The notes: generated by a model not told the origin, from the sequence alone. A DNA stretch of 40,000 bases from Terasakiella sp. (GCF_048571175.1 NZ_CP182348.1:649517-689516); one strand, 5' to 3'. Positions 9,953 to 33,670 are shown, counted from the stretch's first letter. Translations and numbers: made by a program.

Positions 9953-9954
9953 TC

Positions 9955-13777: not shown

Positions 13778-13800
13778 AATTTAATACGAGGAGAAAGCCG

Positions 13801-14091
13801 ATGAATTGTCCTTCAACGAAGGACGGGCATGTCGTCATGCCTGAGGAAGAATTTGAGCAACTGCTTGAGTTGGCCGCTGAACGTGGTGCAAAGCGGGCAC
13901 TGGCGGATGTTGGTCTGGTCGATGAAGAAGCGGCTGGCGATATCCGTGATCTTCGCTCTCTACTCGGCGCTTTGCGTGTGGCCAAGCATACCGCCTGGTC
14001 GACCATTGTCCGTCTCGTCACCACAGGGGTGTTGATCGCCCTGATGGCGGGGGTGGCCATAAAACTTAAACTGTTTGGGGGAGGTCACTGA
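13801..14091 (+). CDS. Small C-terminally membrane-anchored protein of the lysis cassette
   Basis: 96 aa with a strong RBS (gaggaga). One C-terminal TM segment (VTTGVLIALMAGVAI). ATGA-type coupling to the endolysin gene. Confidence 0.4.
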   Translation: MNCPSTKDGHVVMPEEEFEQLLELAAERGAKRALADVGLVDEEAAGDIRDLRSLLGALRVAKHTAWSTIVRLVTTGVLIALMAGVAIKLKLFGGGH

Positions 14092-14903: not shown

Positions 14904-15752
14904 TCAAAGATTGATAAACCAGTCAGGGTCGACAGATACTTTCTCGACAAGTTCTGTTTTTATGCCAAGAGCGAGTTCTTTTAGTTTGTCCGCTAATTGG
15001 TCTCCATCAACGAGATCGATTGGTGCTGCTCCATCTCTCGTGGCTTCGTCGATAGCTGCCTTTGTGAAACTTCCTGTTGTAATGAAGAGCCCCCGATCTG
15101 CTCTGCCGACAGTAGCTCCTCTGAAATCTCGTATTTCTGGGGCTCCGACCGAGCCCTTATATTTTTTGCACTGGAAAGCGATGTGAAAACTCATCAAGCC
15201 ATTGATGCGAGCAATTCCTTTCCCATCAATTCCGCCATCTCCTGTGCGACCTGTTACCTCCACATGAATAAAACCTGATTCACGGAGTAAACGCTGCGTC
15301 AGACGCTCAAACGAGTCTGGGCTGATTTCATTGATTAGGACCTGATGTAATTTCTCACGCCATGCAAGGGCTTCATCTGGTTGCTCCGAAGAGTCTTCAG
15401 GAGTGTTTTCTGGTTCATTGGAGGCAGATCCCTTGTCTAGGCACCTGACATAGGTCACGATTTCCTTGCTGTCGATAGTTTCTGATTTTTTAGCTTTTTC
15501 AGTTAAAGCCCAGACACCTCTTGATGAATTCTCAAGGTAGCCTGCCTTCTTGAGATAGGTTCGCGCCCACGCTAAACGATAGCCGATTTCTGTTTGGCTG
15601 CTTTTTTCTGGGTTATGAAGAACAGCAAGAGTCTCATCATCAAATTTTTCAAGCTCTATAACGGCTTCATAGATTTCATCAATACTGCCAGACCCTCCAA
15701 GGTTAACGAGTGCTTTCATCAATGGCAGCATAAGCTGGTCAAATGTGACCAT
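14904..15752 (-). CDS. mrr: Mrr-family type IV restriction endonuclease
   Basis: N-terminal winged-helix Mrr_N-like region and a C-terminal catalytic core (GDGGIDGKG...HIAFQCKKYKG). ATG at 15752 has GGAGG 7 nt upstream; the track start at 15773 is a TTG. Confidence 0.85.
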   Translation of the reverse strand: MVTFDQLMLPLMKALVNLGGSGSIDEIYEAVIELEKFDDETLAVLHNPEKSSQTEIGYRLAWARTYLKKAGYLENSSRGVWALTEKAKKSETIDSKEIVTYVRCLDKGSASNEPENTPEDSSEQPDEALAWREKLHQVLINEISPDSFERLTQRLLRESGFIHVEVTGRTGDGGIDGKGIARINGLMSFHIAFQCKKYKGSVGAPEIRDFRGATVGRADRGLFITTGSFTKAAIDEATRDGAAPIDLVDGDQLADKLKELALGIKTELVEKVSVDPDWFINL

Positions 15753-16893
15753 GATTTTGTCCTCCAAATTCAAGAGGAAGCAGGTTCAAAAGCTGATCCC
15801 CGATGTTAGTCGCCGTTTCATCTAAATTCACTGTGCAGAAATGGATAGGGTGCCCTTGAATTGACACCTGTTCAGATACAGTTTTGTCGATGGTCGGATG
15901 TAGAAGCATGCCGGAAGTGGTGAAAGAATTTTTCTTACCTGGAAATTCCTGGCTCCGAAGATATGTATAGATTTGGTATAGGTATCCGCTTCTTAGAGTT
16001 TCCTCACGAAACCAGCCCTTTGTCGTGATTGAGTTAAATTTAGTGTCAATTACGAGTCTTTCGCCAGTTTCCTTGTTTTCGATCGAAATGTCGGTTTTCA
16101 TGATCGGCAATATAGCGTCAATCCCGTTAGTTCTTTTGTCAATTTGCCAGAGGAGCTGTTCGCCGGATGACACTCGAAATTTTGAGCGATTGAGTCTGAT
16201 TGCATAAAACCCAGCGATAGCCTTTTCGAATAATTTACGTAACCAACGTATATCGGTTTCGGGCCTTAAAATATGGCGATCTCCAGACATCTGTGTTGGA
16301 AGCATTAGGTCAAAGGCTAAGTCAGCTGCGCTTAGCATTTTTTGGTCCTCAAAATCGCTTCGTCCCAACCGTTCGCTCTTGCTTGAGTATCCAGTCGGTT
16401 TCCCTTGAGTTACGCCCAAACGATCCATGCTGAAAGCTAATGATCGGCAGTGCTTCGACAATTGTTTTTGAGAGGTAATTTTTGCTAGTTGTTCTAAAGC
16501 TGCTCGAACATAACGGTTTCTGGGGGTGTTAGTGGTAAGTCTTTCAAACGTGCAAGAAACTTTGCCTTTTTCGAGAAGCCGATGACTTTCTGTGTAAAGC
16601 GAATTAATTCGCCCTCGTACTTGTCCAAGAATTGCGGTCTCTTGGGTATAGCCAAAGCTAAGATTTCGGATGAGGCGACGTTCCACTTGGTAGCACAATA
16701 CTTCTGCTACCAAATCAGCAATATCCTCGGGGTTCTCAGTCAATCTAGATTTGTCAGAACCGAGATGTCGAAACATGTCAGATGCATACAGAACTAAAAG
16801 CCAGATATTTCTTACCGGTATTCCGCCCAAAAGTTGCTGGCTTAGAGCTGTAGGATTTGTATCTGGCGCATCTAGTGAAGCTGTATCCATCAC
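15739..16893 (-). CDS. mcrC: McrC-like nuclease subunit of the McrBC system
   Basis: 384 aa directly coupled to mcrB (GTG 16893 or ATG 16890, overlapping the mcrB stop). C-terminal PD-(D/E)xK-like segment DISIENKETGERLVIDTKF. Confidence 0.8.
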   Translation of the reverse strand: MMDTASLDAPDTNPTALSQQLLGGIPVRNIWLLVLYASDMFRHLGSDKSRLTENPEDIADLVAEVLCYQVERRLIRNLSFGYTQETAILGQVRGRINSLYTESHRLLEKGKVSCTFERLTTNTPRNRYVRAALEQLAKITSQKQLSKHCRSLAFSMDRLGVTQGKPTGYSSKSERLGRSDFEDQKMLSAADLAFDLMLPTQMSGDRHILRPETDIRWLRKLFEKAIAGFYAIRLNRSKFRVSSGEQLLWQIDKRTNGIDAILPIMKTDISIENKETGERLVIDTKFNSITTKGWFREETLRSGYLYQIYTYLRSQEFPGKKNSFTTSGMLLHPTIDKTVSEQVSIQGHPIHFCTVNLDETATNIGDQLLNLLPLEFGGQNHGHI

Positions 16894-19310
16894 AGTCCTG
16901 CCAGTAACTTGCTCTTAGCACTCTGAGAGCGATCAAGATCGTCAAACCAATACTCGTCCAGAAGTGGGCCAATTTCCGTTTGGACAACATTTCGATACCA
17001 GTCTAAAGCGTCTGTAATTTTTGCATTGAAGGCAGGAGTCACATAGCTATGACCTATTTTAAATTGCGCCCCCAGATTTCGATCATTCTCAATTTCGGCA
17101 TTTAAAGAGATAAGGCGCTCTTCGATGTTCTGAAGCACCTCCATATCTATTCCTGATTTTTCGTGAACCCATTTTTTCCAGGGATCACCAAACGTGGGCT
17201 TAAGATCGATAAAAGCAAAACGCCTACGAAGAGCCAAATCGACTAGAGCGAGGGACCTGTCTGCCACATTCATTGTGCCGATGACATAGAGGTTATCAGG
17301 AACGAAAACACGTTCGGAATCACTTCGACGATAACTTAGCTCAAGAGCTTCTGCCGGTGTTCTTTTGTCAGCTTCAAGAAGGGTTAGCATTTCACCAAAA
17401 ATTTGTGCAGGGTTACCCCTGTTGATTTCTTCAATGACGACAACATGCTTATTGCCTGCATCCTTTTTAGCCTGATTGATCGTCTCTAAAAACGGGCCAT
17501 CCACAAGGTCTAATTTCCCTTCCCCAGCGGGCCTCCAGCCACGAACAAAATCTTCGTAAGAAAGGTTGGGGTGAAATTGAACTGCACGAATTTTGTTATC
17601 GCTTTTGTGACCGATAAGGGCGAAGGCTAACTTTTTGGCCAGCCAGGTTTTTCCCGTTCCCGGAGGGCCTTGTAGAATCAAATTTTTCTTGTTTCTTAAG
17701 CGTTCCAAAATTGCGGCTAAGTTATCTTTTTCTAGAAAGCAGCCATCTTTGATAATGTCATCCAATGTATAGGGCTCGATAGGAGCGACCGCTGGCTCTG
17801 ATTCATCCTCTGTTTCATGTTCCAAGTCAGGGTCAGTTGCATTGGGGTGCGCGGAAGTGCCTGTGTCTTTGTATAGCCATGCAGCGAGAGAGAGTTCTGG
17901 AAACGAGTGAACAGGATACGCATCTTCCAGAAAGCGCAGCTCAAGTTCGTCTAGAATTGCCAAGTAGTCTTTTCCTGAGCACCTACGCTTCGGGCCGTTT
18001 TTACCAATTTCGATTCCGAGCTTTTTCTCAATATATAGCTGTGATTGACCATCAAGCGTGGGGAAATTCCATGGGCGTACCCAATAAAGGCCCATCGATA
18101 AATTCCAGCCAACGCCGTATTGTTGAGAAACAATGCCATAGCCCGAAAGGAATTCATCTCTGGCATCAGCGTCATCTTTATCCGCGAAATTTAGGGCTTT
18201 TTCAAAAAAGTCCCAAAGCCTCTCGATGTCGCCGTCTTCTCTCCTGTCTTCAAAACCGAAAAACCAGGACTTTTGATTGTTCAGGATTGGTATCCCTTCA
18301 AATGAGTCCGGAACTGGTTCTTTAACGTCCAAAAAGTCAGCTAGTTCTTTTGCGATGGCTTTTCTATTTTCATCAGTAATTCCCCTGTTGAATGTTCCCA
18401 TGGTGGTAAAGGGACAAATGTCTGTTTGACCTTTATCCTTGATGTAGGACAGGTCTAGTTTTTCGGCCAATTCGTTGATGAATTTAATAAGGCCTCTTCG
18501 GTCGTCTTTGTGTTTTAAAAGCGCTTGACCGATCGCTTCATAAAACTTGGTCCAGTGGAAACGTTTTGTTTCTACTGGCGTATCACCAAATCTTTCTTGC
18601 CAGAATGGTGCATTTCTAAAGCGGTCTAATTCCTGAGGTATATCATTGAACGTAAAATCAATGAGGCCTTTTGCCTCCCACCGATCAGGGGTTAAACGCC
18701 AAATCGTGCTTCTGTTTGTATAAAAATACCATTCCCGTGGTGTTTCATATTTAGGCGACCAGTCCACATCAACGGTTTGGCCATCACCATGGTTTTTGGT
18801 GATGACACCGATGACTTTGATACCCATTGCAGAAACGGATTGGCCTCCATTATCGAATGGCAGGTTGTGCTTGCGTGTGTACGACGATTTAATAGCAATG
18901 AGGTCGCCAGTTTTCATTGAGCGCACCACATCAAGATATTTATTGTCATAACCGTTTTGCCAGATCCCTTCCTCTATGAAGCTGTCTGTTTGATCTTCGG
19001 CTGCCTTGCCCCACGAAGCTCCCACGAACCAATATGATTTTGGGTTTGTGCTTGCCATTTTTGCTTTGGCAAGGATTGCATCTGTAATAACCCCTGCTAG
19101 TGGCAATTCGCTTTTGTCCATAATTGCTCTGATTTTAAGCTTGAGCTCAGCTTGGATGTCACTTTTTAAATGCCAATCAGTGTACGACTGGATCTTGTCA
19201 ACGACTTGAGCAACATCGTTTGTGACCGTGGCCAAATGGGATGCCTCTAGCTCCACCTTTTGTGAAGCTGCCTGTTCTAAAATGATTTTTCTTATATCTT
19301 CGGTCTTCAT
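16890..19310 (-). CDS. mcrB: McrB-family AAA+ GTPase with a ~540-aa N-terminal extension
   Basis: Walker A LILQGPPGTGKTW (about 17645-17668). McrB signature VVVIEEINRGNPAQIFGEMLTLLE and YVIGTMNVADRSLALVDLALRRRFAF. The N-terminus contains a PUA/EVE-like stretch (YWFVGASWG...KTGDLIAIKSS...IKVIGVI). Confidence 0.9.
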   Translation of the reverse strand: MKTEDIRKIILEQAASQKVELEASHLATVTNDVAQVVDKIQSYTDWHLKSDIQAELKLKIRAIMDKSELPLAGVITDAILAKAKMASTNPKSYWFVGASWGKAAEDQTDSFIEEGIWQNGYDNKYLDVVRSMKTGDLIAIKSSYTRKHNLPFDNGGQSVSAMGIKVIGVITKNHGDGQTVDVDWSPKYETPREWYFYTNRSTIWRLTPDRWEAKGLIDFTFNDIPQELDRFRNAPFWQERFGDTPVETKRFHWTKFYEAIGQALLKHKDDRRGLIKFINELAEKLDLSYIKDKGQTDICPFTTMGTFNRGITDENRKAIAKELADFLDVKEPVPDSFEGIPILNNQKSWFFGFEDRREDGDIERLWDFFEKALNFADKDDADARDEFLSGYGIVSQQYGVGWNLSMGLYWVRPWNFPTLDGQSQLYIEKKLGIEIGKNGPKRRCSGKDYLAILDELELRFLEDAYPVHSFPELSLAAWLYKDTGTSAHPNATDPDLEHETEDESEPAVAPIEPYTLDDIIKDGCFLEKDNLAAILERLRNKKNLILQGPPGTGKTWLAKKLAFALIGHKSDNKIRAVQFHPNLSYEDFVRGWRPAGEGKLDLVDGPFLETINQAKKDAGNKHVVVIEEINRGNPAQIFGEMLTLLEADKRTPAEALELSYRRSDSERVFVPDNLYVIGTMNVADRSLALVDLALRRRFAFIDLKPTFGDPWKKWVHEKSGIDMEVLQNIEERLISLNAEIENDRNLGAQFKIGHSYVTPAFNAKITDALDWYRNVVQTEIGPLLDEYWFDDLDRSQSAKSKLLAGL

Positions 19311-19349: not shown

Positions 19350-22300
19350 CTATCGGGTCCAGGAGTTGGAGAGCGTTTCGGCTTGCTTTAAGACCAGCTC
19401 AACAGCTTCGGCTGCTTTGTCAGGCGGGTACTTCCACCTCTGAAGAGTCCGTCGGACAAGTATCTTGAGCTTTGCCCGGACACTGTCACGAACCTGCCAG
19501 TCTACGGTTGTTGATTTCCTGAGTTTCTCAGTGATTTCAACGGCGATTTTTTTAAGGATTTCATCACCGAGCTCGCGTACTGCACTCTCATTGTTGGCTA
19601 AGGCATCGTAGAATGCGACTTCATCAGGATTAAGGCCGAGTTCTGCTTCTCGAGCCATCTCCTCCTGAAACTCTTTCGCCATTTGAATAAGTTCTTCGAT
19701 CACTTGCGCCGTCTCAATGGCACGGTTGTGATATTTTCGAAGAGTTTCTTGCAGGCGGTCGGCAAACTTCTTTTCTTGCACGACATTGTTTCTGGTTTTT
19801 GCCTTGATGTCGTCTTTGAGAAGTTTCTCCAATAGTTCGACGGCAAGGTTTTTGTGGGGCATCTGCCGCACGTCTTCCAGAAACTCTTCAGACAAAAGGC
19901 CGATATTCGGTTTGTCTAGACCGCAGAGTGCAAAAACGTCAGCTACGCCCTCAGCAACAACAGCATTATCCAGAATTTGCTTTAATGCAGAATTCTTCTC
20001 TTCTTCAGTGCGCTTCTTGTCAACCGTTGTGAATTTGCTGATTGCAGCTTTGATGGCGCTATAAAAAGCGATTTCTTTTCTGAGATCTTTTGCTTCATCC
20101 AGTGTGCTGCTGAGTGAGTAAGCCTTGTTTGTTGCTAGTACTAAATCTAGGAAGCGCTTTTTGCCGTCCTCTATCCCAAGAAGGTAGTTCGCGGCAGGCA
20201 CCAGAAGTTTATGCGCATCCGTTTCAAAAGCAGACAAATCAAGACCGGGAGCCTGAGGTGTTTTGGCAAACATCCCTCTGATAGCATCCAGCTTTTCCAA
20301 TAATATGGCGAAGGCTTCCGCCGCGTTTAGGGTCGGTTGACCTTTTCCCTTGGCATCGGTGTAGGTTTTTAGAGCCTGCTTGAGTTCGTTGGCAATGCCG
20401 ATATAGTCGACGACAAGGCCGCCCGGTTTATTCTTGAAGACACGGTTCACCCGAGCGATCGCCTGCATCAAGTTATGCCCCTTCATGGGCTTGTCGACAT
20501 ACATTGTATGGCAGCATGGGGCATCAAAACCAGTTAGCCACATATCGCGGACGATCACGATTTTGAGCGGATCGTCTAGGTCCTTGAAACGTCTCTCAAG
20601 GCGTTTCTTGGTTTTCTTGTTGTAGATGTGTGGCTGCAGTAGTGCCTTGTCCGATGCCGATCCGGTCATCACGATTTTTATCGCGCCCTTTTCTGGATCG
20701 TCATCATGCCAATCTGGGCGAAGGTCAATAATTTCATTATAAAGATGAGCACAGATGTCACGGCTCATGGCGACAATCATTGCCTTACCGTCCATAGTGG
20801 CATTACGAGATTCAAAATGCTGCACAATATCGGTGGCAATTTCTTTGAGGCGAGGGGTTGAGCCTACCAGCTTTTCAAGGCGGCTCCATTCACCTTTGGT
20901 TTTTTCCCTGTTCCCGACATCTTCGTCATCTTCAATTACTTCGTCGACCTGATCGGACAGTGCCGCTATATCATCTCGGTTAAGGTCAAGTTTTGCCAGT
21001 CGAGACTCATAGTAAATTGGCACTGTCGCACCGTCGTCAACGGCATCTTGAATGTCGTAGATGGAGACGTAGTCACCAAAGACGGATCGGGTGTCTTTGT
21101 CTTCTTGCGAAATGGGGGTGCCGGTAAAGCCAATGAATGATGCATTTGGTATGGCATCACGCATATGCTTGGCATATCCGAATTTATAGCTTCCATCTTT
21201 GGTGAGGACAGCTTTAAGGCCATATTGGCTTCGGTGGGCTTCATCCGATATTACCACAATGTTGTGGCGGTCATTTAGAATGGGGTGAGTGTTCTCGTCA
21301 TCCAGAACCGCAAATTTCTGAACTGTTGTAAAGATAATGCCACCGGAGCTTCGTTCACTTAGTAGGTCACGCAGTGTATCCCGATCGTCAGCCTGAACCG
21401 GTGTTTGCTTCAAAAGCTCTTGGGCGTTGCTGAAGGTCGCAAAAAGCTGGCCGTCCAGGTCGTTTCGGTCGGTCACAATGATAAGCGTTGGGTTGTTCAT
21501 CGCAGGTTGCTGTAGGAGTTTCCCTGCGTAACAACACATGGAAATGCTTTTGCCAGACCCTTGCGTGTGCCAAACAACACCAGCCTTTTTATTTCCCCCT
21601 TCATGAGATGCTTCAATGGTTGCGGCGACAGCTTCGCGCACGGCATGGAATTGGTGGTAACCAGCTATTTTCTTTATGATTTTCTCGCCGTCTGTCTCAA
21701 ATAGAATGAAGAAACGGACATAGTCTAGAAACAATTCACGATCGAAGAAGCCCCTTACCATTGTTTCCAATTGCCATTCCAGTAAGGGCTTGTCGTCTTC
21801 ATCTTTAATCGTGCGCCACGGCATGAAGCGTTCTTGGTTGGCTGTCAGGGAGCCTACACGAGCTGTGTAGCCGTCGCTGATGATCAAAGCTTCATTAAAG
21901 ATAAAGAGGTCAGAGATTTCTTCTTTGTAGGTCTGTATCTGATTGAAGGCATCCCAGATATCGGCGTTTTCGTCTGAGGGGCTTTTTAATTCCAAAACGG
22001 CGATGGGCAGGCCATTAATAAAGCAAACAATATCCGGCCTGCGCGGCTGTTTGGTGCCGCTTACGGTAAATTGGTTGATGGCTTGAAAACGATTTGCAGC
22101 GATATTTTCAAAATCAATGAGAAACGCATGGTCGTGGACGGGTTTGTCCCCGTCTTTAAAATCAACCGGAATGCCGCTTAGCAGAAGGCGGTGGAAGGCT
22201 CGGTTATTTGTAATGAGATCAAGGCTTTCTGCGTGGCGAAGCTTCGCAAGTACCTGCTCTAAGCAGATAGAGATGGCTTCGCTCGGGATATGTTTGTTAA

Positions 22301-22463
22301 TTGCCGGGAAAACAGCGGTGAGCTGGTCCGTCAGCAGAACATCAGAATAATTGCCGCGTGCCGGATTGGCTCCATCAGGCGCGATGTCAGGGCCGTGAAC
22401 GACTTCCCAGCCAGTTTCCTTGAACCAATCAAGGCAGAGGTTTTCTAGTTGTTCTTCATTCAT
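19350..22463 (-). CDS. hsdR: Type I restriction enzyme R subunit
   Basis: 1037 aa. Motifs WHTQGSGKS (Walker A), ISDEAHRSQ (DEAH), typical N-terminus [14 protein letters not shown] and C-terminal helical tail. Confidence 0.95.
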
Positions 22464-23323
22464 TGTTCACCTCTTAATTCTGCCTGCTCAGTGCGGACCT
22501 CGTTCGAAATCAATTCGTTGCAATGAAGGGAAGAACCGGTCAGGTCGGGATATAAATTTGCAAAATGCAGGTTCATTCTGCGTAGCGCCATTAAACAATC
22601 TTGACGCTCATCTTTCGTTTCAATTGGGATATGAAGTTTGAAAATGTAATCTTTAAGGACGAGAGGGTCGTCCACATCGACTTCGTTTTCAGCCAGAGTG
22701 TTAATGATTGTGGTTTCGAGGCTTGTTTCACCGCTGGGGGACAGGGTGAATAAGCCATCTTGACTGATTAAACGGTCATGATCGCTGCTCAGTGGATTAA
22801 CAAAGAGGTCATGAGGAAAAAACGTTTCAAGGTTGCTTTTGTTCAAGCCGAATATGGCACGGCTATAGTTCTTTGGCTTCTCATGCTTTGGATCTTCCTC
22901 GTGCATGGCGAAAAACATGGCGACAAACGGGGAGTGAGACCAATCGAGAAGGGGTGTCCACAGGCCATAATGTTGACCCAGGGCCCATATGTCATCGGCA
23001 CTACCCATCTGAGAGACGGGAATTTTAGTTCTGCCGCGAATAGAGTATTTGAAATTCTCTAAATGGCGTTCGGCCCAGTCTTCTTGGTAGGTCCCCGCTT
23101 CTGTCATGCGGGCGATACTAGGTGTTAAGCCCCAAGATGCATTCCTTTGTCCGCGAAACAGCATTTCGCATGATGAGGACGCAATCTTTCCTGCGTTTGT
23201 AAGTTGCAGAAATTCTTCCCAATTCTTCAAACGGGCCACAGGGATGTTGCCATCCACTTTATCGCCGTGGATGACGAAATCGGGCCACTTAGGAGATTTC
23301 AGGAAGGGTTTCCGTCTAGTCAT
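22460..23323 (-). CDS. FRG-domain protein embedded in the type I operon
   Basis: Motifs [38 protein letters not shown] and [12 protein letters not shown] at 23323 overlaps the hsdS stop by 8 nt, and its stop forms ATGA with the hsdR start. Confidence 0.8.
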
Positions 23324-24695
23324 CAGCAAGCCCCTCCAAATCGATTTCTCCCGACAGGAGCTTGGGTAAAAGCGTGTCCCGGAGCGATTTTAGCGTTTCC
23401 TGCTCGACCAAATTGCTTTCAATGTTGTCAAGGTATGGAGCGGTCACGCTGCAGAATAGAGCTTGGATCTCTTCAGAAGGAACACAATACTTCAGTTTTT
23501 CCATATCTTTGCGAGTTACATGACCTAGGCCAGTGGTCTGCTTGTTTTTCGCTATCGCAATGAAAACAGGCTTTAGATGTTTAAGAAGCCAAAATGTGGA
23601 GTTCCGTTGGGCAGGCTCAGAGTTGACCACTTTGAAAATGTGCTGATTCAGCCAAGCTTCACCGCCAACCCAAATAAAGGTGTCAATTGAAGTCTCTGGA
23701 CTGCCCGACCAGGAAAATAATATATCTCCGGTGTCGAGTTTGAATTTGTCTCCAAGGTCTGTGTTCGTAAATTTTGTATTTCCGGTAATTCCACTTTTAA
23801 GTTCCGCAATTTTGATCACGGGCTTTGCATCAGGATCAGAAGAAAAATGCATATTTTTATATGCGGCACCGTTAATGAATTCAGCAGAATTGATCACAGC
23901 TTCAGTTGTCCAACCCTCGGGGATCGGGCCAAGTTCACTGTCTGCCAAAGCTGCTGGAAAGAGTGCGGCAGTAGCTTGGAGCTTAGCATAAGCTTCTGGT
24001 TGGTCAGCTGCCATCGCATCTAATGCGGCGCTGTCTTTGCCAGAAATGGCTGTCATCGCGGCGCGTTCGGCTTCGTCTTCTGTGCCGCCTGCTTCGAGAA
24101 CTTTAATTTTTGCCTTGGTTGGCTCAAAATCCACAAACCAGCTTTTGAAAATCGCTTGCGCCATTTCCTCCAGCGTTCTGTTGATCTGGTTGTTGATTTC
24201 GATTTTGTCGTCGAGCGCCTTTAAGTGGTCGCCAATTTTTCTTTGAACATTTGGGCTAGGTATATAGGCTCTGTATTGTGTGATTGCAGTTTTATCACCG
24301 CGTGGCATTTTAGCGCCTTTTGATGTCTGATCTGTGTAATCGACAAAGTGCTTGTTGCTCAGCAGGTAATATAAAAATGTAGGCAATACATTTTTTTTAT
24401 CTTTGGATCGAAAAATTAAAACATCTGGTGAAGCGCCGCCTTCAAAGCTTGCATGCCACACTTTGCGAAAGTATGTGCGAATGTTTGAAAATAATGTGTC
24501 GCCAACTTGGAAGTGATTAAATTTTGAAGCGGCCGGTAATTTAGACGCCTTTTCGACTCCTCCACGATCCACGATCATATTGTCGGTGGAAATATAAGTA
24601 TTTTCATCTACCTCATCGGCGGAAATTTTATCGCTGATTAGGTCAATAATATTGCCTAATTCATGCGTTGTGTTGAAATCAAAGTCAGCAGTCAT
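23316..24695 (-). CDS. hsdS: Type I restriction enzyme specificity subunit (two TRDs)
   Basis: Central conserved helix TLEEMAQAIFKSWFVDFEP and C-terminal LKSLRDTLLPKLLSGEI. ATG at 24695 overlaps the hsdM stop by 11 nt; the track start at 24752 lies inside hsdM. Confidence 0.9.
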   Translation of the reverse strand: MTADFDFNTTHELGNIIDLISDKISADEVDENTYISTDNMIVDRGGVEKASKLPAASKFNHFQVGDTLFSNIRTYFRKVWHASFEGGASPDVLIFRSKDKKNVLPTFLYYLLSNKHFVDYTDQTSKGAKMPRGDKTAITQYRAYIPSPNVQRKIGDHLKALDDKIEINNQINRTLEEMAQAIFKSWFVDFEPTKAKIKVLEAGGTEDEAERAAMTAISGKDSAALDAMAADQPEAYAKLQATAALFPAALADSELGPIPEGWTTEAVINSAEFINGAAYKNMHFSSDPDAKPVIKIAELKSGITGNTKFTNTDLGDKFKLDTGDILFSWSGSPETSIDTFIWVGGEAWLNQHIFKVVNSEPAQRNSTFWLLKHLKPVFIAIAKNKQTTGLGHVTRKDMEKLKYCVPSEEIQALFCSVTAPYLDNIESNLVEQETLKSLRDTLLPKLLSGEIDLEGLADD

Positions 24696-26415
24696 AACCC
24701 AACCCCGCCAAGTTAGATTTGATCTCATTCTCCAACGCTTCGGCTGTTTCAAACTGGGATGAAAGTTCAGCCGATAGACGGGTCATCTTTTCTGTAAACG
24801 GTTCTGTATCTTCTTCACCGTCAACGGCACCGACGTAACGACCGGGTGTAAGCACAAAGTCGTGCTTGTCCATGTCTGCTAATTCGGCAGAGAAACAAAA
24901 GCCTTTTTCATCCGCATAATCAGTGCCTGTTTTCCAAGCATGGAAGGTCCCAGCAATCTTTGCGATGTCTTTATTCGTAAAATCACGCAGCACCCGGTCT
25001 TTCATGAAGCCGATATTTCGAGCGTCGATGAAGAGTGTTTTGCCGCTGCGATCTCGTTTTCCATTGCCGCCCTTTTTGTTTTTGGTTAGGAACCAGATAC
25101 AGGCTGGAATTTGTGTGTTAGTGAAGAGTTGGCCTGGCAAAGCAACCATACATTCTACGAGATCGTTTTGGATGAGAGCCTTACGAATAACGCCTTCGTT
25201 GTTGGTGTTGCTGCTCATAGACCCATTTGCGAGTAAGAGTGCCATAGAGCCATTGTTGTTCAGATGATGCAGCATATGAAGAATCCACGCGAAATTTGCA
25301 TTGCCTGCAGGCGGTGTTTCATACCCTTTCCAGCGCACATCATCTTCAAGGCTGGCATGCCACCAGTCTTTGATGTTGAAAGGCGGGTTGGCCATCACAA
25401 AGTCGGCGCGAAGATCTGGATGCTGATCATCTAAAAAGCTATCAGCGTTTTTCTTGCCGAAATTAAAATCGATCCCGCGAATAGCCATGTTCATGGCAGC
25501 CAATTTCCAGGTGGTTGGATTGCTTTCCTGACCGTAAACCGAGATATGTTTCTTCTGCTCCTGAGCGTTGTAATGCTTTTCCGCAGCATGGGCTTCGATG
25601 AATTTATCATTCGAGACGAAGAAGCCCCCCGCACCCATGGCAGGGTCGTAGACGCGGCCTTTATATGGCTCGAGCATTTCTACAATCAGGGTAACAACGC
25701 TTTTCGGTGTGTAATACTGCCCACCCTGTTTTCCTTCCGCGAGGGCGAATTGCCCGAGGAAATATTCGTAGACGTGACCGAGAATGTCTTTGCTGTGCAG
25801 GTCCAGCTTTTCCCCTTCAAATTCCGGATTGCTGAAGCTGGTATCCGAGAATTTGTTGATGAGCTCTGTAAGGTTATGGTTATCCACCTGATATTGACTA
25901 ATGCGTGGAAGGACATTTTTTAGTTTTGGGTTGGCTGGCTTATCGCCAATCTTATAAGTCTCAATGGCTTCAAGCGCATTGTCGATCAGCTTTGAAATAG
26001 ACGTTAGCTTGATGTCTTTGCCGCTCTCGTCTTGTCCGATAACGGAACCAATGGGCTGGGCAGCCGTTGTTTTCAGGAAGTCCCAGCGTGATTGTTTGGG
26101 CACCCAAAAAACATTCTTTTCCTGATAATACTCGTGAAGTTCCAACTCGGCGCTGACGGCTTCTTCGTATTCTTCGTCGCTGCCATAATCGTCACGCGGC
26201 ATGAAGTAGATGTTGTCGTCGCTGTCATCTTCCGTGAATAATTTGCGAAGCTCATTGCGGCGTTCTTCGAATGCATCAGATACATACTTTAAGAAGATGA
26301 GCCCTAGCACCACATGTTTGTAGTTGGCGGCATCCAGGTTGTTGCGCAAACGATCGGCAGCTTTCCACAGTTTGTCGTCGAGCTCTTTTAAGAATTTTTG
26401 TTCTGCTGATTTCAT
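24685..26415 (-). CDS. hsdM: Type I restriction enzyme N6-adenine methyltransferase subunit
   Basis: AdoMet motif YDPAMGAGGFF, catalytic NPPF (FVMANPPFNIKDW), and an HsdM N-terminal domain (LWKAADRLRNNLDAANYKHVVLGLIFLKY). Confidence 0.95.
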   Translation of the reverse strand: MKSAEQKFLKELDDKLWKAADRLRNNLDAANYKHVVLGLIFLKYVSDAFEERRNELRKLFTEDDSDDNIYFMPRDDYGSDEEYEEAVSAELELHEYYQEKNVFWVPKQSRWDFLKTTAAQPIGSVIGQDESGKDIKLTSISKLIDNALEAIETYKIGDKPANPKLKNVLPRISQYQVDNHNLTELINKFSDTSFSNPEFEGEKLDLHSKDILGHVYEYFLGQFALAEGKQGGQYYTPKSVVTLIVEMLEPYKGRVYDPAMGAGGFFVSNDKFIEAHAAEKHYNAQEQKKHISVYGQESNPTTWKLAAMNMAIRGIDFNFGKKNADSFLDDQHPDLRADFVMANPPFNIKDWWHASLEDDVRWKGYETPPAGNANFAWILHMLHHLNNNGSMALLLANGSMSSNTNNEGVIRKALIQNDLVECMVALPGQLFTNTQIPACIWFLTKNKKGGNGKRDRSGKTLFIDARNIGFMKDRVLRDFTNKDIAKIAGTFHAWKTGTDYADEKGFCFSAELADMDKHDFVLTPGRYVGAVDGEEDTEPFTEKMTRLSAELSSQFETAEALENEIKSNLAGLGYDC

Positions 26416-26428: not shown

Positions 26429-27364
26429 TCACGCATTGCTGACGTCAGTCAGGAACTGTTGGTTGTGATGGCTGGTATACCCTGGTGCAATCGCAAGGTT
26501 TTCAACGCCGTAAAGGGTTGGGGTGTTCTTCAGCCACAGATGATACTCTGGACCGGCTAGTTTATGGTCTTCGGTGCAGTCCACATTCCACTTACGGAGA
26601 AGGTAGCCAGCAACGGCGGCTCGAACCTCTACATTGAGCAGGTTGTCAGACATGCCATATTCAAGGCTAATGGCTTCCGGGTGTTTAAGGGCAGGATGCG
26701 GAACGATATGCATCTCAACAATTCGGTTCCACTGTTTGTCCGCGTCTTTTATTTCATGAGGCAATATCAATACGTTCTTTGCAAGTTTAACGCTGGCGAT
26801 CCTGTTAATTACAAAATCAGAAAAGCGCTCTCTTGCACGGTCAAACCCACGCACATGCCAGCGAAGACCATTATCGACCAGTGCGAAAGGGACTATCTCG
26901 CGTTTTGAATTGCCGCTTGATATGGATAGGTAGGTGATTTCAAGGGGAACCTTGTTGTGGATTGCCCTAGTGATGGCAGCCAGAATATCAATATTGGGAA
27001 AATTCAGCTCTGTTGGAGCTTCGGCGGGAACCAGTGAGCATTCCGGGCTGACAAAATCATCCCCATAGCCATGAAGAAGGGCTGCAAGTGTCTGGCTCCC
27101 CGAATATTCGAAAAGGGGTCTGAAACCGTCACGCTGGATATAGGTTTTTACTTTTGTGTCATATTCGATGTTTTTAGGGGTTAAGTCTTTGTATTGGGAA
27201 AGGTCGCGTGAGGCTGCGGCTTCCTTGATCCCGAATCGCTCGACCAAATCAGATCTATTAACTGAGCCTAGGAAATAGAGTTTGAAGTCGATATGAAACA
27301 GTCGCTCCTGCTGTGCTTGGCTGATTTCGGCCAGTTTTGCTTGGATGTCATCCCCTGCAGACAT
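26429..27364 (-). CDS. wHTH-WYL transcriptional regulator (BrxR/CapW-like)
   Basis: ATG at 27364 with GGGGAGA upstream. N-terminus ERLFHIDFKLYFLGSVNRSDLVERFGIKEAAASRDLSQYKDL and WYL core REIVPFALVDNGLRWHVRGFDRARERFSDFVINRI. Its stop lies 13 bp before the hsdM start. Confidence 0.7.
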   Translation of the reverse strand: MSAGDDIQAKLAEISQAQQERLFHIDFKLYFLGSVNRSDLVERFGIKEAAASRDLSQYKDLTPKNIEYDTKVKTYIQRDGFRPLFEYSGSQTLAALLHGYGDDFVSPECSLVPAEAPTELNFPNIDILAAITRAIHNKVPLEITYLSISSGNSKREIVPFALVDNGLRWHVRGFDRARERFSDFVINRIASVKLAKNVLILPHEIKDADKQWNRIVEMHIVPHPALKHPEAISLEYGMSDNLLNVEVRAAVAGYLLRKWNVDCTEDHKLAGPEYHLWLKNTPTLYGVENLAIAPGYTSHHNQQFLTDVSNA

Positions 27365-27501
27365 TTTTCTCCCCAGTTTTATAGCGTGCCAGTTGCGGCT
27401 ATAAAGTAGCGTATAGGGATATATGGTATTTATATATGTGTCAATATGATAACCACTAAGGGTGTTGGTGTCCGATGTTTTTACCCTTGCTCTTTTCTGA
27501 A

Positions 27502-27539
27502 AGGGACGTGCCAATTTGGCGGCAGACTGGCACGTCCCT
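27502..27539. repeat. Perfect 12-bp inverted repeat AGGGACGTGCCA-N14-TGGCACGTCCCT
   Basis: Read directly, 140-175 bp upstream of the WYL regulator start. There is no proper T-tract on either strand, so it looks more like an operator than a terminator. Confidence 0.6.
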
Positions 27540-27711
27540 AACTCGCAAAGCTGATTGCCTATCAATCAACCTTTCGACCAGCAATAAGGTGCTAGTCTTG
27601 GTGGGCCCAGAGCGGGATCGCCGCCATCCCCACCTCCGTCCTTGATCCGCCCCTCACGACGGCGTCTCCGACGGTCCCCGCGCTTATCGGGTCCGGGTCC
27701 CCTTGGATGCG

Positions 27712-28617
27712 TCACTCGCGCTCAAGGTCACGGGTGTCAGCGCCAACTGCATCCATTACTGATCGAAGCTCGCCGAACATTGAGCCATGATGGCGATCCA
27801 GATAGTCGGCGATGGTTTCATTTTTCAGAAGTTTTGATAGGTAACCTTTGGCGACGACCAATGTAAACATTGTGTCTCCAAGCGTGTCTTCGACATTTCG
27901 GTATTCTTGTTGCAGGCGTTCCATTTCCCGCTCCATCCGTGCAATATCCTCAGGCGAAACGCCTTTGAGCATGTTTTTCTTTTCTGGTTTCACGAGCTTG
28001 TCCGGGGGCATTCCGGCCAAAAGAACCTTGGCATAAGTGACGGTGTATCGGTTTGCGGACATCATCATTTCGCAAGCCTCGATCTGGGCCATTGGCTTCA
28101 TCTTTCGGAGAATGCCGAACACCTGTACACTCACCATTTTTTCCTTCAGAAGTTCGACGGCCTCTGGCGCAATGTTTCGGAGCATGTTTTGGCGCTCACG
28201 AATGCGCTTTACGTCCACGTCCAAAGCTTCCGCGATTCTTTCTTGAGAAACGCCACGTTCAATCGCTTTGACGATCATATTGTGCTCCTGCACAGCACTA
28301 AGGCGGTTCACACGCCGATTGTATGTAAAGCTCTCATCGTCCGTTGAGACCAGGCAGATGGCTTCTGTTTCTCCAAGCTGCTTCAGGGCTTCTAAGCGGA
28401 GGTGCCCATCCAGCAGGATATAGTTTTTATTCTTTCCGGATCCTGAGTCAGGAAAAACCGCCAACGGTTCAATGATCCCCACGTCTTTAACAGAAGCCAG
28501 GATAGTTCGATATTTGCGTGTCCGGTGAAGCCCCTGTGAGAGAGGCCTAGTTGGTGCGATACGGTCAAGAGGGACCTGGATCGTGTCATCCAGAAATCCC
28601 TTGGTGATGGTGGTCAT
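27712..28617 (-). CDS. ParB/Srx N-terminal domain protein with RepB-C-like C-terminus (paralog B)
   Basis: Motifs IIEPLAVF...YILLDGHLRLEAL, an HTH (VSQERIAEALDVDVKRIRERQNML), and an ATGA overlap with the upstream paralog. Confidence 0.7.
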   Translation of the reverse strand: MTTITKGFLDDTIQVPLDRIAPTRPLSQGLHRTRKYRTILASVKDVGIIEPLAVFPDSGSGKNKNYILLDGHLRLEALKQLGETEAICLVSTDDESFTYNRRVNRLSAVQEHNMIVKAIERGVSQERIAEALDVDVKRIRERQNMLRNIAPEAVELLKEKMVSVQVFGILRKMKPMAQIEACEMMMSANRYTVTYAKVLLAGMPPDKLVKPEKKNMLKGVSPEDIARMEREMERLQQEYRNVEDTLGDTMFTLVVAKGYLSKLLKNETIADYLDRHHGSMFGELRSVMDAVGADTRDLERE

Positions 28618-29480
28618 GGATGCAACCTCTCTGCAAGAGGTTGCGGCATGTCGCTGTATCCTTCCGCTCGAAGGAGCGTTCGAAAATGCTCATCCGCCAA
28701 GAGACGACGTAGTGCCGAGATCAGAAACAAAAGGCGCTGCTCGTTAACGTCAGCCTTCTTGATCAACAGTTTCTGGCGGTTGACTTCATCTTGATAGGTT
28801 TGAACCAGCTTGCGGGTTGAAAAGGGCTTGTCTGTTCTTCTTGAATGGGTGCGATAGCGTTTACCCATGAAGCGACGGCGCTCGATTATGCGACGCACTT
28901 TGATGAGCTGATCTCCACGCAAGGCCCCGCTTTCATATGCTTCGGTCAGGCCTTTCTGTAATTCGTTTTCGCTGCTGCGCGAAATTTCAACGGCCATGCT
29001 AAGCGGGATTACGTTCTTTTCTACTGCAGCAATGAGCCGTTCTTCTCCTTCTTTCAGTAGGTGAGAGATGCCACGAACGTAAGTCACGTCCAAGTCTGTT
29101 TTCTTGGCGATTTCCCGGGCGTTATAGCCACGTTCCTCAAGATCCTTTATCCCATGGAGAAGATCCATATTGGTGTGTTGGCGACGAGCTATGTTTTCAA
29201 TCAGGCTCATCAGGTAGCAGTCTTGCTCTGACGCCTTGATGACCATTGCAGGAATTTCCGTCTCGCCGAGTGCCTGGTATGCCTCAACGCGGCCCTGTCC
29301 GCATACCAAGTCATACCCATTCCGTGATGGGGTGACGGTAATAGGCCTTTTCAGTCCAATCGAAGCGATATTATCGACGATACCTGCGAAGACTTTCTTA
29401 TTTCGCACACGCGGATTGATCACCCTTATTTGGTCAATCGGGATCATTTGAATAGAGGGTGAAACCGGTTGGCTTTGCAT
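28614..29480 (-). CDS. ParB/Srx N-terminal domain protein with HTH (paralog A)
   Basis: Motifs IPIDQIRVINPRVRN, YDLVCGQGRVEAYQALG, and an HTH (YNAREIAKKTDLDVTYVRGISHL). Its start ATG shares 1 nt with the recombinase stop (TAATG). Confidence 0.7.
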   Translation of the reverse strand: MQSQPVSPSIQMIPIDQIRVINPRVRNKKVFAGIVDNIASIGLKRPITVTPSRNGYDLVCGQGRVEAYQALGETEIPAMVIKASEQDCYLMSLIENIARRQHTNMDLLHGIKDLEERGYNAREIAKKTDLDVTYVRGISHLLKEGEERLIAAVEKNVIPLSMAVEISRSSENELQKGLTEAYESGALRGDQLIKVRRIIERRRFMGKRYRTHSRRTDKPFSTRKLVQTYQDEVNRQKLLIKKADVNEQRLLFLISALRRLLADEHFRTLLRAEGYSDMPQPLAERLHP

Positions 29481-31057
29481 TATGCGACCTCCTTCAAATT
29501 GACACGGCGAGCGAGGCGATAAAGGTAGTCCAAGCTGTCAAACCGATAGATGTCGAGGTTTAGCCCGTTCTCCTCTGCAAGTCGTAGTTTTGGCAAAGCC
29601 ATATCGATTGAAGGCAGAAGGTAATAATCAAGCGGCTGTTCGTTGCCATGGGCCATTCGAACGGCAATGGTGATGTCTGGTCTAAGCCCGGTGTCAAAGC
29701 GGATATTCCACCGGAGGGATCCCGCGTTTGTTTCTTGGCAGCGGCTTAGAACCAATGAAACGGTGAATTCTCTATTGATCCATAGGAGGCCAGTTTCAGG
29801 GTCTGTCTCGACTGTGCAGCCGAGGGCTTCAATGTTTTGTATGGTTGAGGCAACGATGTCCGGGTGCATTTCCCGGAGATGGCGATTGATTTCGATATAT
29901 CGATAGTCTCGGTCTGGCTTATAGCCAATTTTGTGGTAGGCGCGGATGAGGCTGCCAAACCGATGTCGATAGGCCCCTGACGACGGCATTCCTTCTGTTT
30001 CGTCGATAATGATGCCGGATAGAGCGCCATGTTTTTGTAGCAGCGTTGATAGGTGTTCAAGCATTTCGTCATCAGAAAAGCGGCGGTTTCGCTCTTCGAT
30101 GATTGCTTGTGCCGCTTGGAAAATTTCTGGATCGACAATTCCTTCAAATGCACCTTCGTTTCGAACCCACATCTCTGGGGGGTTGTCGACACGTTTATTT
30201 TTAAGCTTGCAAGAGGATCGGTTGTAGAGGTTGTTGCCGATGTATTTTTCGTTGGTCAGTAGTTGATGAACGGAGGCTCGGGTCCAAGGCCTGTTCAGAT
30301 CCGTAAAGATACCCTGTTCATTTAGTCGCGCGGCTATCTGGGCCTCATTTTGGCCGTCTTCAACGAAAGCCCGATACATCCAGCTTACGGTTTCAACTTC
30401 TTCGTCAGGGCCGGGGATTAGAATGACACGATCTGTCTGAAGGCTTTTTCGGTCGCCACGGTTTAGAATGCCTTTAGGGGAGCCCGTTTCGTCAACCATC
30501 ATTCGGCGGAGGCCATAACCGGCGGGGCCACCTTGTCGATAACCTAGTTCGATCAGACGGCACTGACCGGCAAAGACCTTGACGGAGAGCTCTCGACTGT
30601 ACTCGCCAGCCATAGCTCTTTTCACCGTTTTCACGATGGTGGAGCTGATGCTTCCGTCATTCTCAAATTGCTCGGCGCAGTATTCGACGCGGATGCCTGC
30701 TCGTTTGCACAGGTACTCGTAGAAAGCGCTTTCGTCAGAGTCCTGGAAACGTCCCCAGCGACTGACGTCGTAAACCAGAATAACTGAAAAATCAGCTTGT
30801 CCCGCTTCTACATCGTTGATGAGTCGCTGCAAGCCATCTCGCCCATCTATGTTAAGGCCGCTACGTCCTTCGTCGGCATAGGTTTTGATAATCTGGTAGC
30901 CCTTGCGGGCGGCATATTGGTGAATCGTGTCACCTTGGTTTTCCGTAGAGTATTTTTGGTGCTCTGTGGACATCCGAACGTATTCAGCCGCCCGGATGAG
31001 CGTCGCGTTATTTTCGGGAGATTTATCCGGGGCTGAATCCTGTTTTTCTGTCACCAA
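29480..31057 (-). CDS. Large serine recombinase
   Basis: 525 aa. Resolvase catalytic domain (AAEYVRMSTEHQKYSTENQ, VYDVSRWGRF), followed by a recombinase domain and a long C-terminal region. Confidence 0.9.
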   Translation of the reverse strand: MVTEKQDSAPDKSPENNATLIRAAEYVRMSTEHQKYSTENQGDTIHQYAARKGYQIIKTYADEGRSGLNIDGRDGLQRLINDVEAGQADFSVILVYDVSRWGRFQDSDESAFYEYLCKRAGIRVEYCAEQFENDGSISSTIVKTVKRAMAGEYSRELSVKVFAGQCRLIELGYRQGGPAGYGLRRMMVDETGSPKGILNRGDRKSLQTDRVILIPGPDEEVETVSWMYRAFVEDGQNEAQIAARLNEQGIFTDLNRPWTRASVHQLLTNEKYIGNNLYNRSSCKLKNKRVDNPPEMWVRNEGAFEGIVDPEIFQAAQAIIEERNRRFSDDEMLEHLSTLLQKHGALSGIIIDETEGMPSSGAYRHRFGSLIRAYHKIGYKPDRDYRYIEINRHLREMHPDIVASTIQNIEALGCTVETDPETGLLWINREFTVSLVLSRCQETNAGSLRWNIRFDTGLRPDITIAVRMAHGNEQPLDYYLLPSIDMALPKLRLAEENGLNLDIYRFDSLDYLYRLARRVNLKEVA

Positions 31058-31208
31058 GGCAATCCTTCTTTTGTGCCGTTACACCGACATTTGCATGTAG
31101 GCGAGTTCGGCCTTCTTCGAGACTGCATGGAACCCTACGTGCCCTATGGGAAGTCACGAGACTCTAAAAAATCAACAGAATGTACCGTATTTGTCAATCA
31201 TTAAATAT

Positions 31209-31342
31209 ACAAAATGTTGGAAAAAGTAGAGGGTGAGGTGTCTGTCAACTCCCGGTAAATACGCATTTTTTATGGGATGAAAGGGGGGTGATTCTAATCT
31301 AAGGTACACAAAATGTTGTTGTTAAGGTGGTTGAAATGTTGG
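31209..31342. promoter_or_regulatory. Repeated ACAAAATGTTG motifs in the divergent recombinase/XRE control region
   Basis: Exact 11-mers at 31209-31219 and 31308-31318, plus GAAATGTTGG at 31333-31342, inside an AT-rich 295-bp divergent intergenic region. Confidence 0.35.
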
Positions 31343-31352
31343 ATTATGAAGT

Positions 31353-31685
31353 ATGGACAATAGAATTAGTGAACTTCGTAAGGCAAAAGGGCTGACCATA
31401 AAAAGGCTGGCCGAGCTTGTCGGGACGAGCAATCAACAAATCAGCCACTTGGAGAAGGGGCATCGCCGACTAACACTCGAGTGGATGGAGCGAATCGCGG
31501 AAGCCTTGGAATGCCACCCATCTGACTTGTTAAATGGTGGAACGCGCCTCGAAAACGATCGAGAACGAGCGATGATTGAGCTGTTCCGTGGCCTTTCAGA
31601 GGAGCAGCAGGAAGCATTTTTACAAGCGACTGCTGCGTTGGCGAAACCGATAGAGAAAGAAGAAAAGAAGGTCAAAGCCGGTTAA
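31353..31685 (+). CDS. XRE-family HTH transcriptional regulator
   Basis: Motif LRKAKGLTIKRLAELVGTSNQQISHLEKGHRRLTLEWMERIAEAL. Confidence 0.85.
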   Translation: MDNRISELRKAKGLTIKRLAELVGTSNQQISHLEKGHRRLTLEWMERIAEALECHPSDLLNGGTRLENDRERAMIELFRGLSEEQQEAFLQATAALAKPIEKEEKKVKAG

Positions 31686-31693
31686 ATAGGAAT

Positions 31694-31718
31694 GGCCGCA
31701 CCGGTATTGGCTGCGGCC
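31694..31718. terminator. Bidirectional hairpin between the convergent XRE and integrase genes
   Basis: ggccgca (31694-31700) pairs with tgcggcc (31712-31718), followed by ttt. Confidence 0.45.
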
Positions 31719-31729
31719 TTTGACTTAGT

Positions 31730-32896: not shown

Positions 32897-32945
32897 AGGG
32901 CACCTCTTTGCGGCTGATTAACTCTCGGTGATTGCTGCGCCGTTC

Positions 32946-33133
32946 TTAATCCCTGGAATCATAGTGGAATCATGAGGGCTGGTTTCGGCGAGCAACCGAT
33001 CGAATGACAGCGTAAAGCGATGTCTGAATTAGTCCAGTAATATCAATTGGTTATAGTGTTTCTGCGAAATCTTTAGAAATGGCCATATCACGGCTCATAA
33101 TCTGAGAGCAGTAGAACGAAATCCTGCGCATCA
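32946..33133 (+). repeat. Attachment-site-like block A: arm repeats plus a decayed tRNA 3-prime-half-like core
   Basis: Homologous to block B. 32946-32979 matches 36137-36170 at 28/34. 33055-33091 matches 36182-36218 at 29/37. The core 33092-33133 starts with the ggctcataa-ctga anticodon-loop sequence. TGGAATCA occurs twice, 11 bp apart (32954, 32965). Confidence 0.55.
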
Positions 33134-33235
33134 TCCTGCTATCAGAGCGAAAACGTGAGTAGTTCGGATATACAGGTTTGTTTTCGCTGTGTCCCGCAGG
33201 TTTCTGGCCTTTTTCGCACCTCTTTGAGTTCTCTT

Positions 33236-33259
33236 GATTCCAGAAGGGAGGCTGGAATC
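33236..33259. repeat. Inverted pair of the arm motif: GATTCCAG-N8-CTGGAATC
   Basis: Read directly. It uses the same TGGAATC heptamer as the arm repeats in blocks A and B and lies about 100 bp right of core A. Confidence 0.4.
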
Positions 33260-33610: not shown

Positions 33611-33618
33611 AAGCATTG

Positions 33619-33651: not shown

Positions 33652-33670
33652 AGTTTCAGGGTTCCAAATA

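Follow-up and report, generated by a model that had tools for sequence, protein, structure and literature searches.

Type I restriction-modification (RM) enzymes are usually described as three-subunit machines, and PrrC has long been the main example of a fourth, guarded effector. The 40,000-nucleotide stretch of Terasakiella sp. DNA analysed here (GCF_048571175.1, NZ_CP182348.1:649517-689516; hereafter the window) carries a type I RM operon in which a gene coding for an FRG-domain protein lies between hsdS and hsdR. Its presence there raises the question of whether the protein works with the restriction enzyme or is simply carried along with it. Examination of related loci revealed that the lineage of this gene hardly occurs anywhere except between hsdS and hsdR, and that the majority of its members are fused to a module that is also found at the C-terminus of HsdR. 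With a probability that we put at roughly 40%, FRG is a restriction-coupled accessory effector of this type I enzyme and not merely a passenger.

The FRG gene and its place next to hsdS

The FRG gene of the window is real and intact, and is no chance open reading frame (ORF). Its ATG at 23323 is preceded by a GGAGG box 9 nt upstream and is also the start in P0001, a 96%-identical homologue. A TTG at 23329 is an alternative start giving 289 residues (22460..23329, minus strand), a form for which no exact-sequence match was found in the contig collection. Since the ATG is shared with P0001 and has the GGAGG box, the 287-residue product at 22460-23323 proposed by an earlier, sequence-only reading of the window is right, and the codon overlaps described by that reading are found at both ends: the hsdS stop and the FRG start have 8 nt in common (ATGACTAG), while the FRG stop and the hsdR start overlap by ATGA. 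Counts of promoter- and terminator-like signals around FRG were at or under chance, and none beyond chance separates the gene from its neighbours.

A search against Pfam matched residues 56-148 of the 289-residue form to PF08867 (FRG) with 84.4 bits (E 1.1e-23; gathering cut-off 25 bits), covering profile positions 3-92 of 94. All three motifs quoted earlier, RLISQDGLF among them, are present in the ORF; the FRG motif LFRGQR is at residues 55-60 and a GQH...LLDW block at 116-132. The description of the protein as essentially one FRG domain is fair in a wider sense only, because the Pfam model spans about 90 residues whereas a core of residues 20-270 is conserved in homologues. There are 690 such homologues at E <= 1e-5, with identities down to about 34% among the matches listed. 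An AlphaFold2 model built from 118 sequences (mean predicted local distance difference test, pLDDT, 86.4; predicted template-modelling score, pTM, 0.83) shows an alpha/beta domain spanning nearly the whole protein.

The genes flanking FRG form a complete type I system (Table 1). The sequence-only reading had proposed counting how often FRG genes occur between hsdS and hsdR, and the outcome is strongly positive. The survey covered 80 loci, with one genome per species; ORFs were called, searched with the Hsd proteins of the window and split by the identity of their FRG to the window protein (at least 36%, or at most 35%). In the first class hsdS stands directly upstream of FRG in 43 of 45 genome loci and hsdR follows downstream on the same strand in 42 of 45. 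The gap between hsdS and FRG is within 20 bp either way in 36 of the 43 loci, a 4-bp overlap being the commonest arrangement. The exceptions are contig ends; L005, where long GmrSD and Fic cargo takes up the rest of the contig; and L038, the single true exception. The hosts are Alpha-, Beta-, Gamma- and Deltaproteobacteria, Spirochaetes, Planctomycetes, Bacteroidota, Bacillota, Fibrobacteres, KSB1 and Margulisbacteria. In the second class, no hsd genes were detectable within 8 kb at 34 genome loci, nor at 48 viral-contig loci of the same identity range; the single closer viral-contig relative (37% identity), from a separate viral scan, has the order hsdM-hsdS-FRG-x-hsdR.

The tie of FRG is to hsdS; the slot that varies in these operons comes after FRG. 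Unrelated cargo, 0.26-2 kb long, separates FRG from hsdR in 23 of 42 loci, and includes genes for Abi_2-like, AlbA/RecG-like, DUF3800-like and AbiE-like proteins, AAA ATPases, RhuM/Fic, GmrSD and DSPc phosphatases. Room for a gene between hsdS and FRG is found in one locus only. If the side of insertion were random, 23 vs 1 would have a probability of about 3e-6 (two-sided binomial, the loci being related to one another). An insertion hotspot situated simply at the 5' end of hsdR may be an alternative reason for this asymmetry.

Several other arrangements were encountered. A type I system close to that of the window, with a DUF4268 protein in the slot, is found in 44 E. coli genomes, of which SA186 was examined: the DUF4268 gene follows hsdS (L083 6899-8092), its product has a weak PD-(D/E)XK match, and TIR-domain and WYL genes lie upstream. 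Another locus (L040 7685-10211) carries a second FRG copy (E 2e-51) past hsdR, preceded by hsdM fragments, which may be a partial duplicate or part of a decayed second system. Predicted phage contigs commonly carry distant FRG genes that stand alone (L091-L138, 48 loci) and match phrog_4962, and on a conjugative plasmid of Vibrio harveyi (L085) an FRG gene sits among small genes, by a HigB toxin-antitoxin pair and an IS5 element.

An HsdR-like module and a putative enzymatic core

Many homologues of the window protein are 390-460 residues long and annotated with FRG plus PF11867. Their C-terminal 110 residues or so align with the last 110 or so of HsdR, and the two kinds of tail have the motif VDW..R....A.+R...R..L+...YP in common. 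PF11867 matched 29 of 29 sampled FRG tails, and a hidden Markov model (HMM) built from FRG tails alone picks up the HsdR tail of the window at 49.7 bits. In an AlphaFold2 model of P0024, which is 61% identical to the window FRG, a core (residues 1-278) is followed by a disordered linker (282-303) and a four-helix tail (307-394). The window FRG ends at residue 287 and matches neither PF11867 nor the tail HMM.

The window protein is 36-66% identical to the RM-embedded group and at most 35% identical to stand-alone FRGs. In a neighbour-joining tree of 198 cores, the outgroup consists of the stand-alone FRGs and the backbone of RM-embedded FRGs with tails, and the tail-less clade of the window is nested at a tip, with the tail-bearing P0024 inside it. 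This topology argues that the window FRG is most likely a derived form which has lost its tail. The order hsdS-FRG-hsdR is kept in eight of eight tail-less relatives examined, the window included (the others being P0001, Serratia P0014, P0012, Vibrio harveyi P0046, P0008, P0034 and L001), and the same order is found at the tail-bearing P0024 and at Rhizobium pRL11.

The C-terminal region of HsdR has been implicated in binding the HsdS-HsdM complex by work on EcoR124I and EcoKI (PMC2878639, PMC5248579). The position of the tail suggests that it docks FRG where HsdR docks; we infer this from position, since the EcoR124I and EcoKI work concerns C-termini with no detectable similarity to the window HsdR. 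A physical or functional link between FRG and the Hsd complex gains plausibility from the fusion of most lineage members to the C-terminal module of HsdR.

Some expectations about the tail were abandoned. EcoKI HsdR, expected to carry PF11867 and thereby to tie the classic proteolysis work to the tail, carries EcoEI_R_C. Co-evolution or gene conversion of the tails was rejected, cognate FRG and HsdR tails being 20.6% identical and non-cognate ones 20.5%. Nor does every occupant of the slot have a tail, as the E. coli DUF4268 protein lacks one. No tail module was found in the variable cargo ORFs of the loci scanned, and a sequence search with the tail profile against solved structures returned nothing usable.

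Two loci with unusual tails deserve mention. In L011 (Mannheimia haemolytica) the FRG core (7923-8648, 241 residues) and the tail (8694-9140, a 148-residue ORF, tail HMM E 1e-13) are separate, by either a frameshift or a natural split. L038, the true exception of the survey, is from a metagenome-assembled genome of Spirochaetia and has the sole tail-bearing FRG outside a type I operon (7944-9095); neither hsdS nor hsdR lies nearby, and among otherwise unknown ORFs an N6_N4 DNA methylase is encoded 4 kb upstream of it and an SF1-type helicase downstream.

The window contains the module a third time, in the McrB-like protein encoded directly after hsdR. Positions 249-323 of PF11867 match its residues 10-87 (27.4 bits, E 2.7e-6; cut-off 26.8), and its N-terminus scores E 2.7e-9 with a tail HMM from which this sequence was left out. 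An HMM of FRG tails alone gives this copy 25.8 bits and one of HsdR tails alone 12.1 bits, so that it resembles FRG tails more closely. The module is also present in the McrB-like protein of a 96%-related contig (L081); the McrB-like genes of L050 and L140 lack it.

As for the core, published work counts the Frg domain among the ADP-ribosyltransferase (ART) superfamily and suggests that it may be an NADase and antiviral effector (PMC9503650). Polar residues conserved through the RM-embedded lineage and 80 distant FRGs, phage members included, are R57, R72, Q117, H118, D127, S131, R184 and Q188. All family-wide conserved residues, G58 included, are present in the window FRG, and R57, G58, H118 and D127 are conserved at 97-100% even in the 80 distant FRGs. 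In the AlphaFold2 model, R57 lies in strand 54-59, S131 just after strand 125-129, and Q188 in a loop before strand 191-194. By the order of these elements, with no superposition, R57, S131 and Q188 bear a resemblance, and only that, to an R-S-E triad whose Glu is replaced by Gln.

The sequence-only reading had suggested looking for active sites in a predicted structure. The model is confident and its Foldseek hits include weak ART-like folds (TreTu in both searches; EcPltA, IcmQ and ExoA in the first), but nothing reaches significance (best E 0.28, probabilities <= 0.18). Searches of the PDB by sequence, with the window FRG and with the 118-sequence profile, returned no matches. The statement of the same reading that FRG domains have no established biochemical function holds experimentally, in the literature found; it overlooks the published assignment to ARTs and possible NADases (PMC9503650) and the PADLOC listing of the family as PDC-S15.

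A small gene for a phosphatase of the DSPc/Rit1-DUSP-like type was observed directly 3' of tail-less FRG genes in two separate lineages, Serratia entomophila (L082 10833-11243) and a metagenomic contig (L139 9831-10325), and overlaps FRG in the latter. The phosphatase may be a partner or reversal enzyme of FRG, and the pair may carry out a reversible phospho- or ADP-ribose-linked chemistry.

Readings of the role of the gene

According to the reading that we favour, the HsdR-like tail would bring FRG to the site used by the tail of HsdR, on the HsdM2-HsdS core or on the DNA held there, where FRG would serve as an alternative or additional subunit of the Hsd complex. Its core, following the assignment in the literature, would be an NAD+-using enzyme of the ART superfamily, kept quiet in the normal complex and triggered once the complex encounters foreign DNA or a phage anti-restriction protein blocks it. 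Once fired, FRG would deplete NAD+ or ADP-ribosylate a target, and the outcome would be a second line of defence, as with PrrC and DarTG2 from the same slot. Because the window FRG has no tail, any association of its own would need other contacts, and co-translation with HsdS and HsdR is the only link to Hsd visible in its sequence. The earlier suggestion of an RM-guarded effector or accessory regulator draws support from the prrC-like position, the survey and the HsdR-tail fusion in most relatives, and loses some from the tail-less window protein itself.

A number of observations weigh against a restriction-coupled effector. The strongest argument for docking does not apply directly to a protein without a tail. 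The C-terminus of the window HsdR (338 residues searched) has no sequence similarity to any solved structure, EcoR124I included; EcoKI HsdR has a different C-terminal domain from that of the window; and cognate tails are no more similar to each other than non-cognate ones. The N-terminus of McrB homologues is normally a DNA-recognition domain (PMC12707154), so that a module located there in the McrB-like protein would fit DNA binding as well as docking. For the core, Foldseek gave no significant match to the ART fold, no Pfam ART family was matched by any of 35 members even at E 10, and an invariant Gln (Q188) occupies the place where a catalytic Glu would be expected. No experiments on any FRG protein, anti-phage activity included, were found in the literature searched. 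Finally, unrelated defence genes have a general hotspot at the hsdS-hsdR junction; in E. coli, the slot next to an HsdR with 71.5% DNA identity to that of the window contains DUF4268 and no FRG; and distant FRGs occur in stand-alone contexts such as plasmids, islands and phage contigs.

The alternative that survives best, less likely than the favoured reading but to be taken seriously, is an autonomous embedded defence gene, a single-gene sensor and effector making no contact with Hsd proteins, like TgvAB, and found in the hotspot only because linkage to a selected operon aids its spread and expression. Such a hitchhiker agrees with the PADLOC listing of PDC-S15 as a single-gene candidate, with the view of Payne et al. 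that embedding can be selfish, with the many unrelated systems of a site termed a potential recombination hotspot (PMC12255303), with distant FRGs of similar size standing alone and with the missing tail of the window protein. It is at odds with a lineage that has this position in 43 of 45 loci and essentially no other context, and that keeps its coupling to hsdS while other cargo enters downstream. Moreover, an HsdR-derived module has been acquired and kept in most members, which is not easily accounted for unless FRG and HsdR have an interaction in common.

A regulatory role appears improbable to us. Here FRG would compete with HsdR through its tail, or modify an Hsd subunit, thereby tuning restriction versus modification, and could delay restriction in a new host or relieve it when host DNA is unmodified. 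An HsdR-like tail on a flexible linker would make an obvious competitor for the HsdR site, yet it is this supposed competing element that the tail-less clade has lost while retaining the core, and a competitor would need less than a conserved, enzyme-like core whose invariant polar residues recur in stand-alone and phage FRGs. Translational coupling to both hsdS and hsdR, from a position between them, favours regulation, as do the mobility of the cassette, which enters new hosts repeatedly, and the known need of type I enzymes for restriction alleviation (PMC4231737); closely related type I systems nevertheless exist without FRG.

A mobile-element or phage gene carried with the island for anti-defence or element maintenance is very unlikely: FRG relatives are indeed common on viral contigs (48 stand-alone loci, phrog_4962) and occur on conjugative plasmids among small genes near toxin-antitoxin and insertion sequence elements, and the island of the window lies between phage tail genes and recombinases, but the viral and plasmid relatives are distant (<= 35% identity) and the lineage of the window is limited to chromosomal type I operons from many phyla, where FRG has the orientation of its neighbours and is translationally coupled to them, an arrangement unlike that of anti-defence or mobility genes.

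The restriction-coupled reading can be extended, in a form that we consider quite doubtful, to an HsdM2-HsdS core acting as a hub that takes several effectors through the HsdR C-terminal helical adaptor, namely HsdR, the ART-like FRG and perhaps the McrB-like GTPase, the tail-less window FRG being a later, differently wired derivative. If this were true, one DNA-recognition complex would direct several different killing activities. More generally, FRG is, next to PrrC, a second family, unrelated to it and much more widespread, whose genetic tie to hsdS is closer than that of any other cargo and most of whose members contain a piece of HsdR. Docking of FRG on the methyltransferase core, if true, would make effector swapping on a restriction complex testable, give a first biochemical handle on the FRG domain (NADase or ADP-ribosylation) and explain a response to anti-restriction proteins. 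If FRG is autonomous, it is still a single-gene defence candidate with clear catalytic-residue targets. The window copy by itself is a finding at the level of a catalogue, a PDC-S15 member in its usual place, and its value lies more in the features of the family.

Genomic surroundings and comparison with known systems

The FRG gene belongs to a row of minus-strand defence genes in the order WYL regulator, hsdM, hsdS, FRG, hsdR, McrB-like, McrC and Mrr (Table 1). The hsdS ORF is listed from its first start codon, a TTG 68 nt within hsdM; the true start is probably an ATG about 57 nt further on, near 24695 (MTADFDF...), leaving a short hsdM-hsdS overlap. Walker A and DEAH motifs are visible in the hsdR sequence. 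The WYL protein may be a regulator of the whole defence operon, and a BrxR-type WYL gene has the same position upstream of hsdM in L142.

Table 1. Annotated features of the window, with positions counted from its first nucleotide
Feature	Position	Strand	Evidence or remark
Phage tape measure	3714-6245	+	
Phage tail-tip J-like	11402-13777	+	
Mrr-type type IV restriction endonuclease	14904..15773	-	Mrr_N + Mrr_cat E 3e-31; PADLOC mREase_IV
McrC-like nuclease subunit	15739..16893	-	McrBC PF10117 E 1e-18
McrB-like AAA+ GTPase, directly after hsdR	16890..19310	-	AAA_5 E 8e-27; McrB equivalog E 2e-75, under trusted cut-off
HsdR-tail module in McrB-like protein, N-terminal residues 10-87	19050..19283	-	PF11867 27.4 bits; tail HMM E 2.7e-9
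hsdR restriction/translocase subunit	19350..22463	-	HSDR_N, SWI2_SNF2, T1R_D3-like, T1RH-like_C E 3e-121; TIGR00348 E 2e-193
C-terminal helical tail module of HsdR, residues 930-1036	19356..19676	-	PF11867; FRG-tail-only HMM 49.7 bits
FRG-domain gene, 287 residues	22460..23323	-	PF08867, GGAGG box, overlaps, PDC-S15 match, AlphaFold2 model
hsdS specificity subunit	23316..24752	-	Methylase_S, 2 stretches; PADLOC Specificity_I E 8e-90
hsdM methyltransferase subunit	24685..26415	-	HsdM_N + N6_Mtase E 3e-108; PADLOC MTase_I E 2.5e-166
WYL-domain putative transcriptional regulator, directly upstream of hsdM	26429..27565	-	WYL E 1.6e-12; PADLOC
Large serine recombinase	29480-31057		After defence cluster
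Tyrosine integrase	31730-32896		After defence cluster
Ankyrin-repeat protein	33792-36101		After defence cluster

The G+C content of the defence genes is 43-48%, and that of the adjoining phage tail genes (window 1-14000, plus strand) 53-60%. Beyond the defence cluster (27712-39990) lie two ParB/RepB-like genes, the recombinase, the integrase, the ankyrin-repeat protein, a DDE transposase and a DEAD-box helicase. The block formed by the RM system, FRG, McrBC and Mrr looks like cargo at the end of a prophage, or a separate integrative island. An island of similar content was observed in Vibrio harveyi (L140), with an Ank protein, integrases, a resolvase, hsdMS-FRG-hsdR and McrBC.

Turning to systems already described, 14 PDC-S15 models of PADLOC match the window FRG directly, the best being PDLC04934 (E 1.7e-91, model positions 6-296 of 416). 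Among the positions of that model is the HsdR-like C-terminal part, absent from the window protein. The PDC families were collected by their embedding in BREX, DISARM or type I RM systems (Payne et al. 2024, 'guilt-by-embedding'), and the window FRG likewise sits inside a type I RM operon. As catalogued, PDC-S15 is a single-gene candidate listed without experiments or proposed mechanism; no text on it was found in the Payne preprint, and neither 'PDC-S15' nor 'FRG' appears in the text-form supplements. Because the window protein matches PDC-S15, the general embedding of FRG genes counts as known and is already catalogued. The ART assignment is already published too, the Frg clade of that superfamily (Burroughs & Aravind 2020; Iyer et al. 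2022) being the same Pfam family, PF08867, as the window FRG. Nothing published was found on the strict adjacency to hsdS, the HsdR-tail fusion, its loss in the lineage of the window or the McrB-like copy, some of which Burroughs & Aravind 2020 may mention.

Compared with HsdR itself, the likeness of FRG is restricted to the last 100 residues or so of the PF11867 type, which have a homologue in FRG relatives and none in the window FRG; the nuclease and motor domains of HsdR are both absent from FRG.

DarT is a DNA ADP-ribosyltransferase and a member of the ADP-ribosyltransferase superfamily, the one to which FRG is assigned. DarTG2 has been reported as nested between hsdS and hsdR within a defence island of enteropathogenic E. 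coli (EPEC; PMC12255303), the same slot as FRG. DarTG2 and FRG have no detectable sequence similarity, and fusion to an HsdR-derived module, frequent in FRG, sets it apart from DarTG2. DarT is paired with its antitoxin DarG; no gene accompanies FRG constantly as a partner, and a DSPc-type phosphatase follows it only occasionally. TgvAB of Vibrio cholerae VPI-2 has been described in the same place between hsdS and hsdR.

PrrC is the established effector held latent by an RM complex and released when the phage peptide Stp inhibits the enzyme, and its gene is embedded in a type IC operon (PMC3874165, PMC12707154). The comparison with the prr locus drawn by the sequence-only reading is sound as to position, since FRG likewise lies between hsdS and hsdR; the prr locus is of type IC and the window system has an HsdR of the PF11867 type. 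FRG as a PrrC homologue was rejected: PrrC is an ABC-ATPase and anticodon-nuclease protein, whereas the 287 residues of the window FRG contain neither part and no P-loop, and no ATPase, PrrC or RloC match was found in Pfam, PADLOC or NCBIfam. The analogy with PrrC is partly supported: the two agree in position, and relatives of the window FRG have a likely physical tie to the enzyme, but the analogy does not extend to homology.

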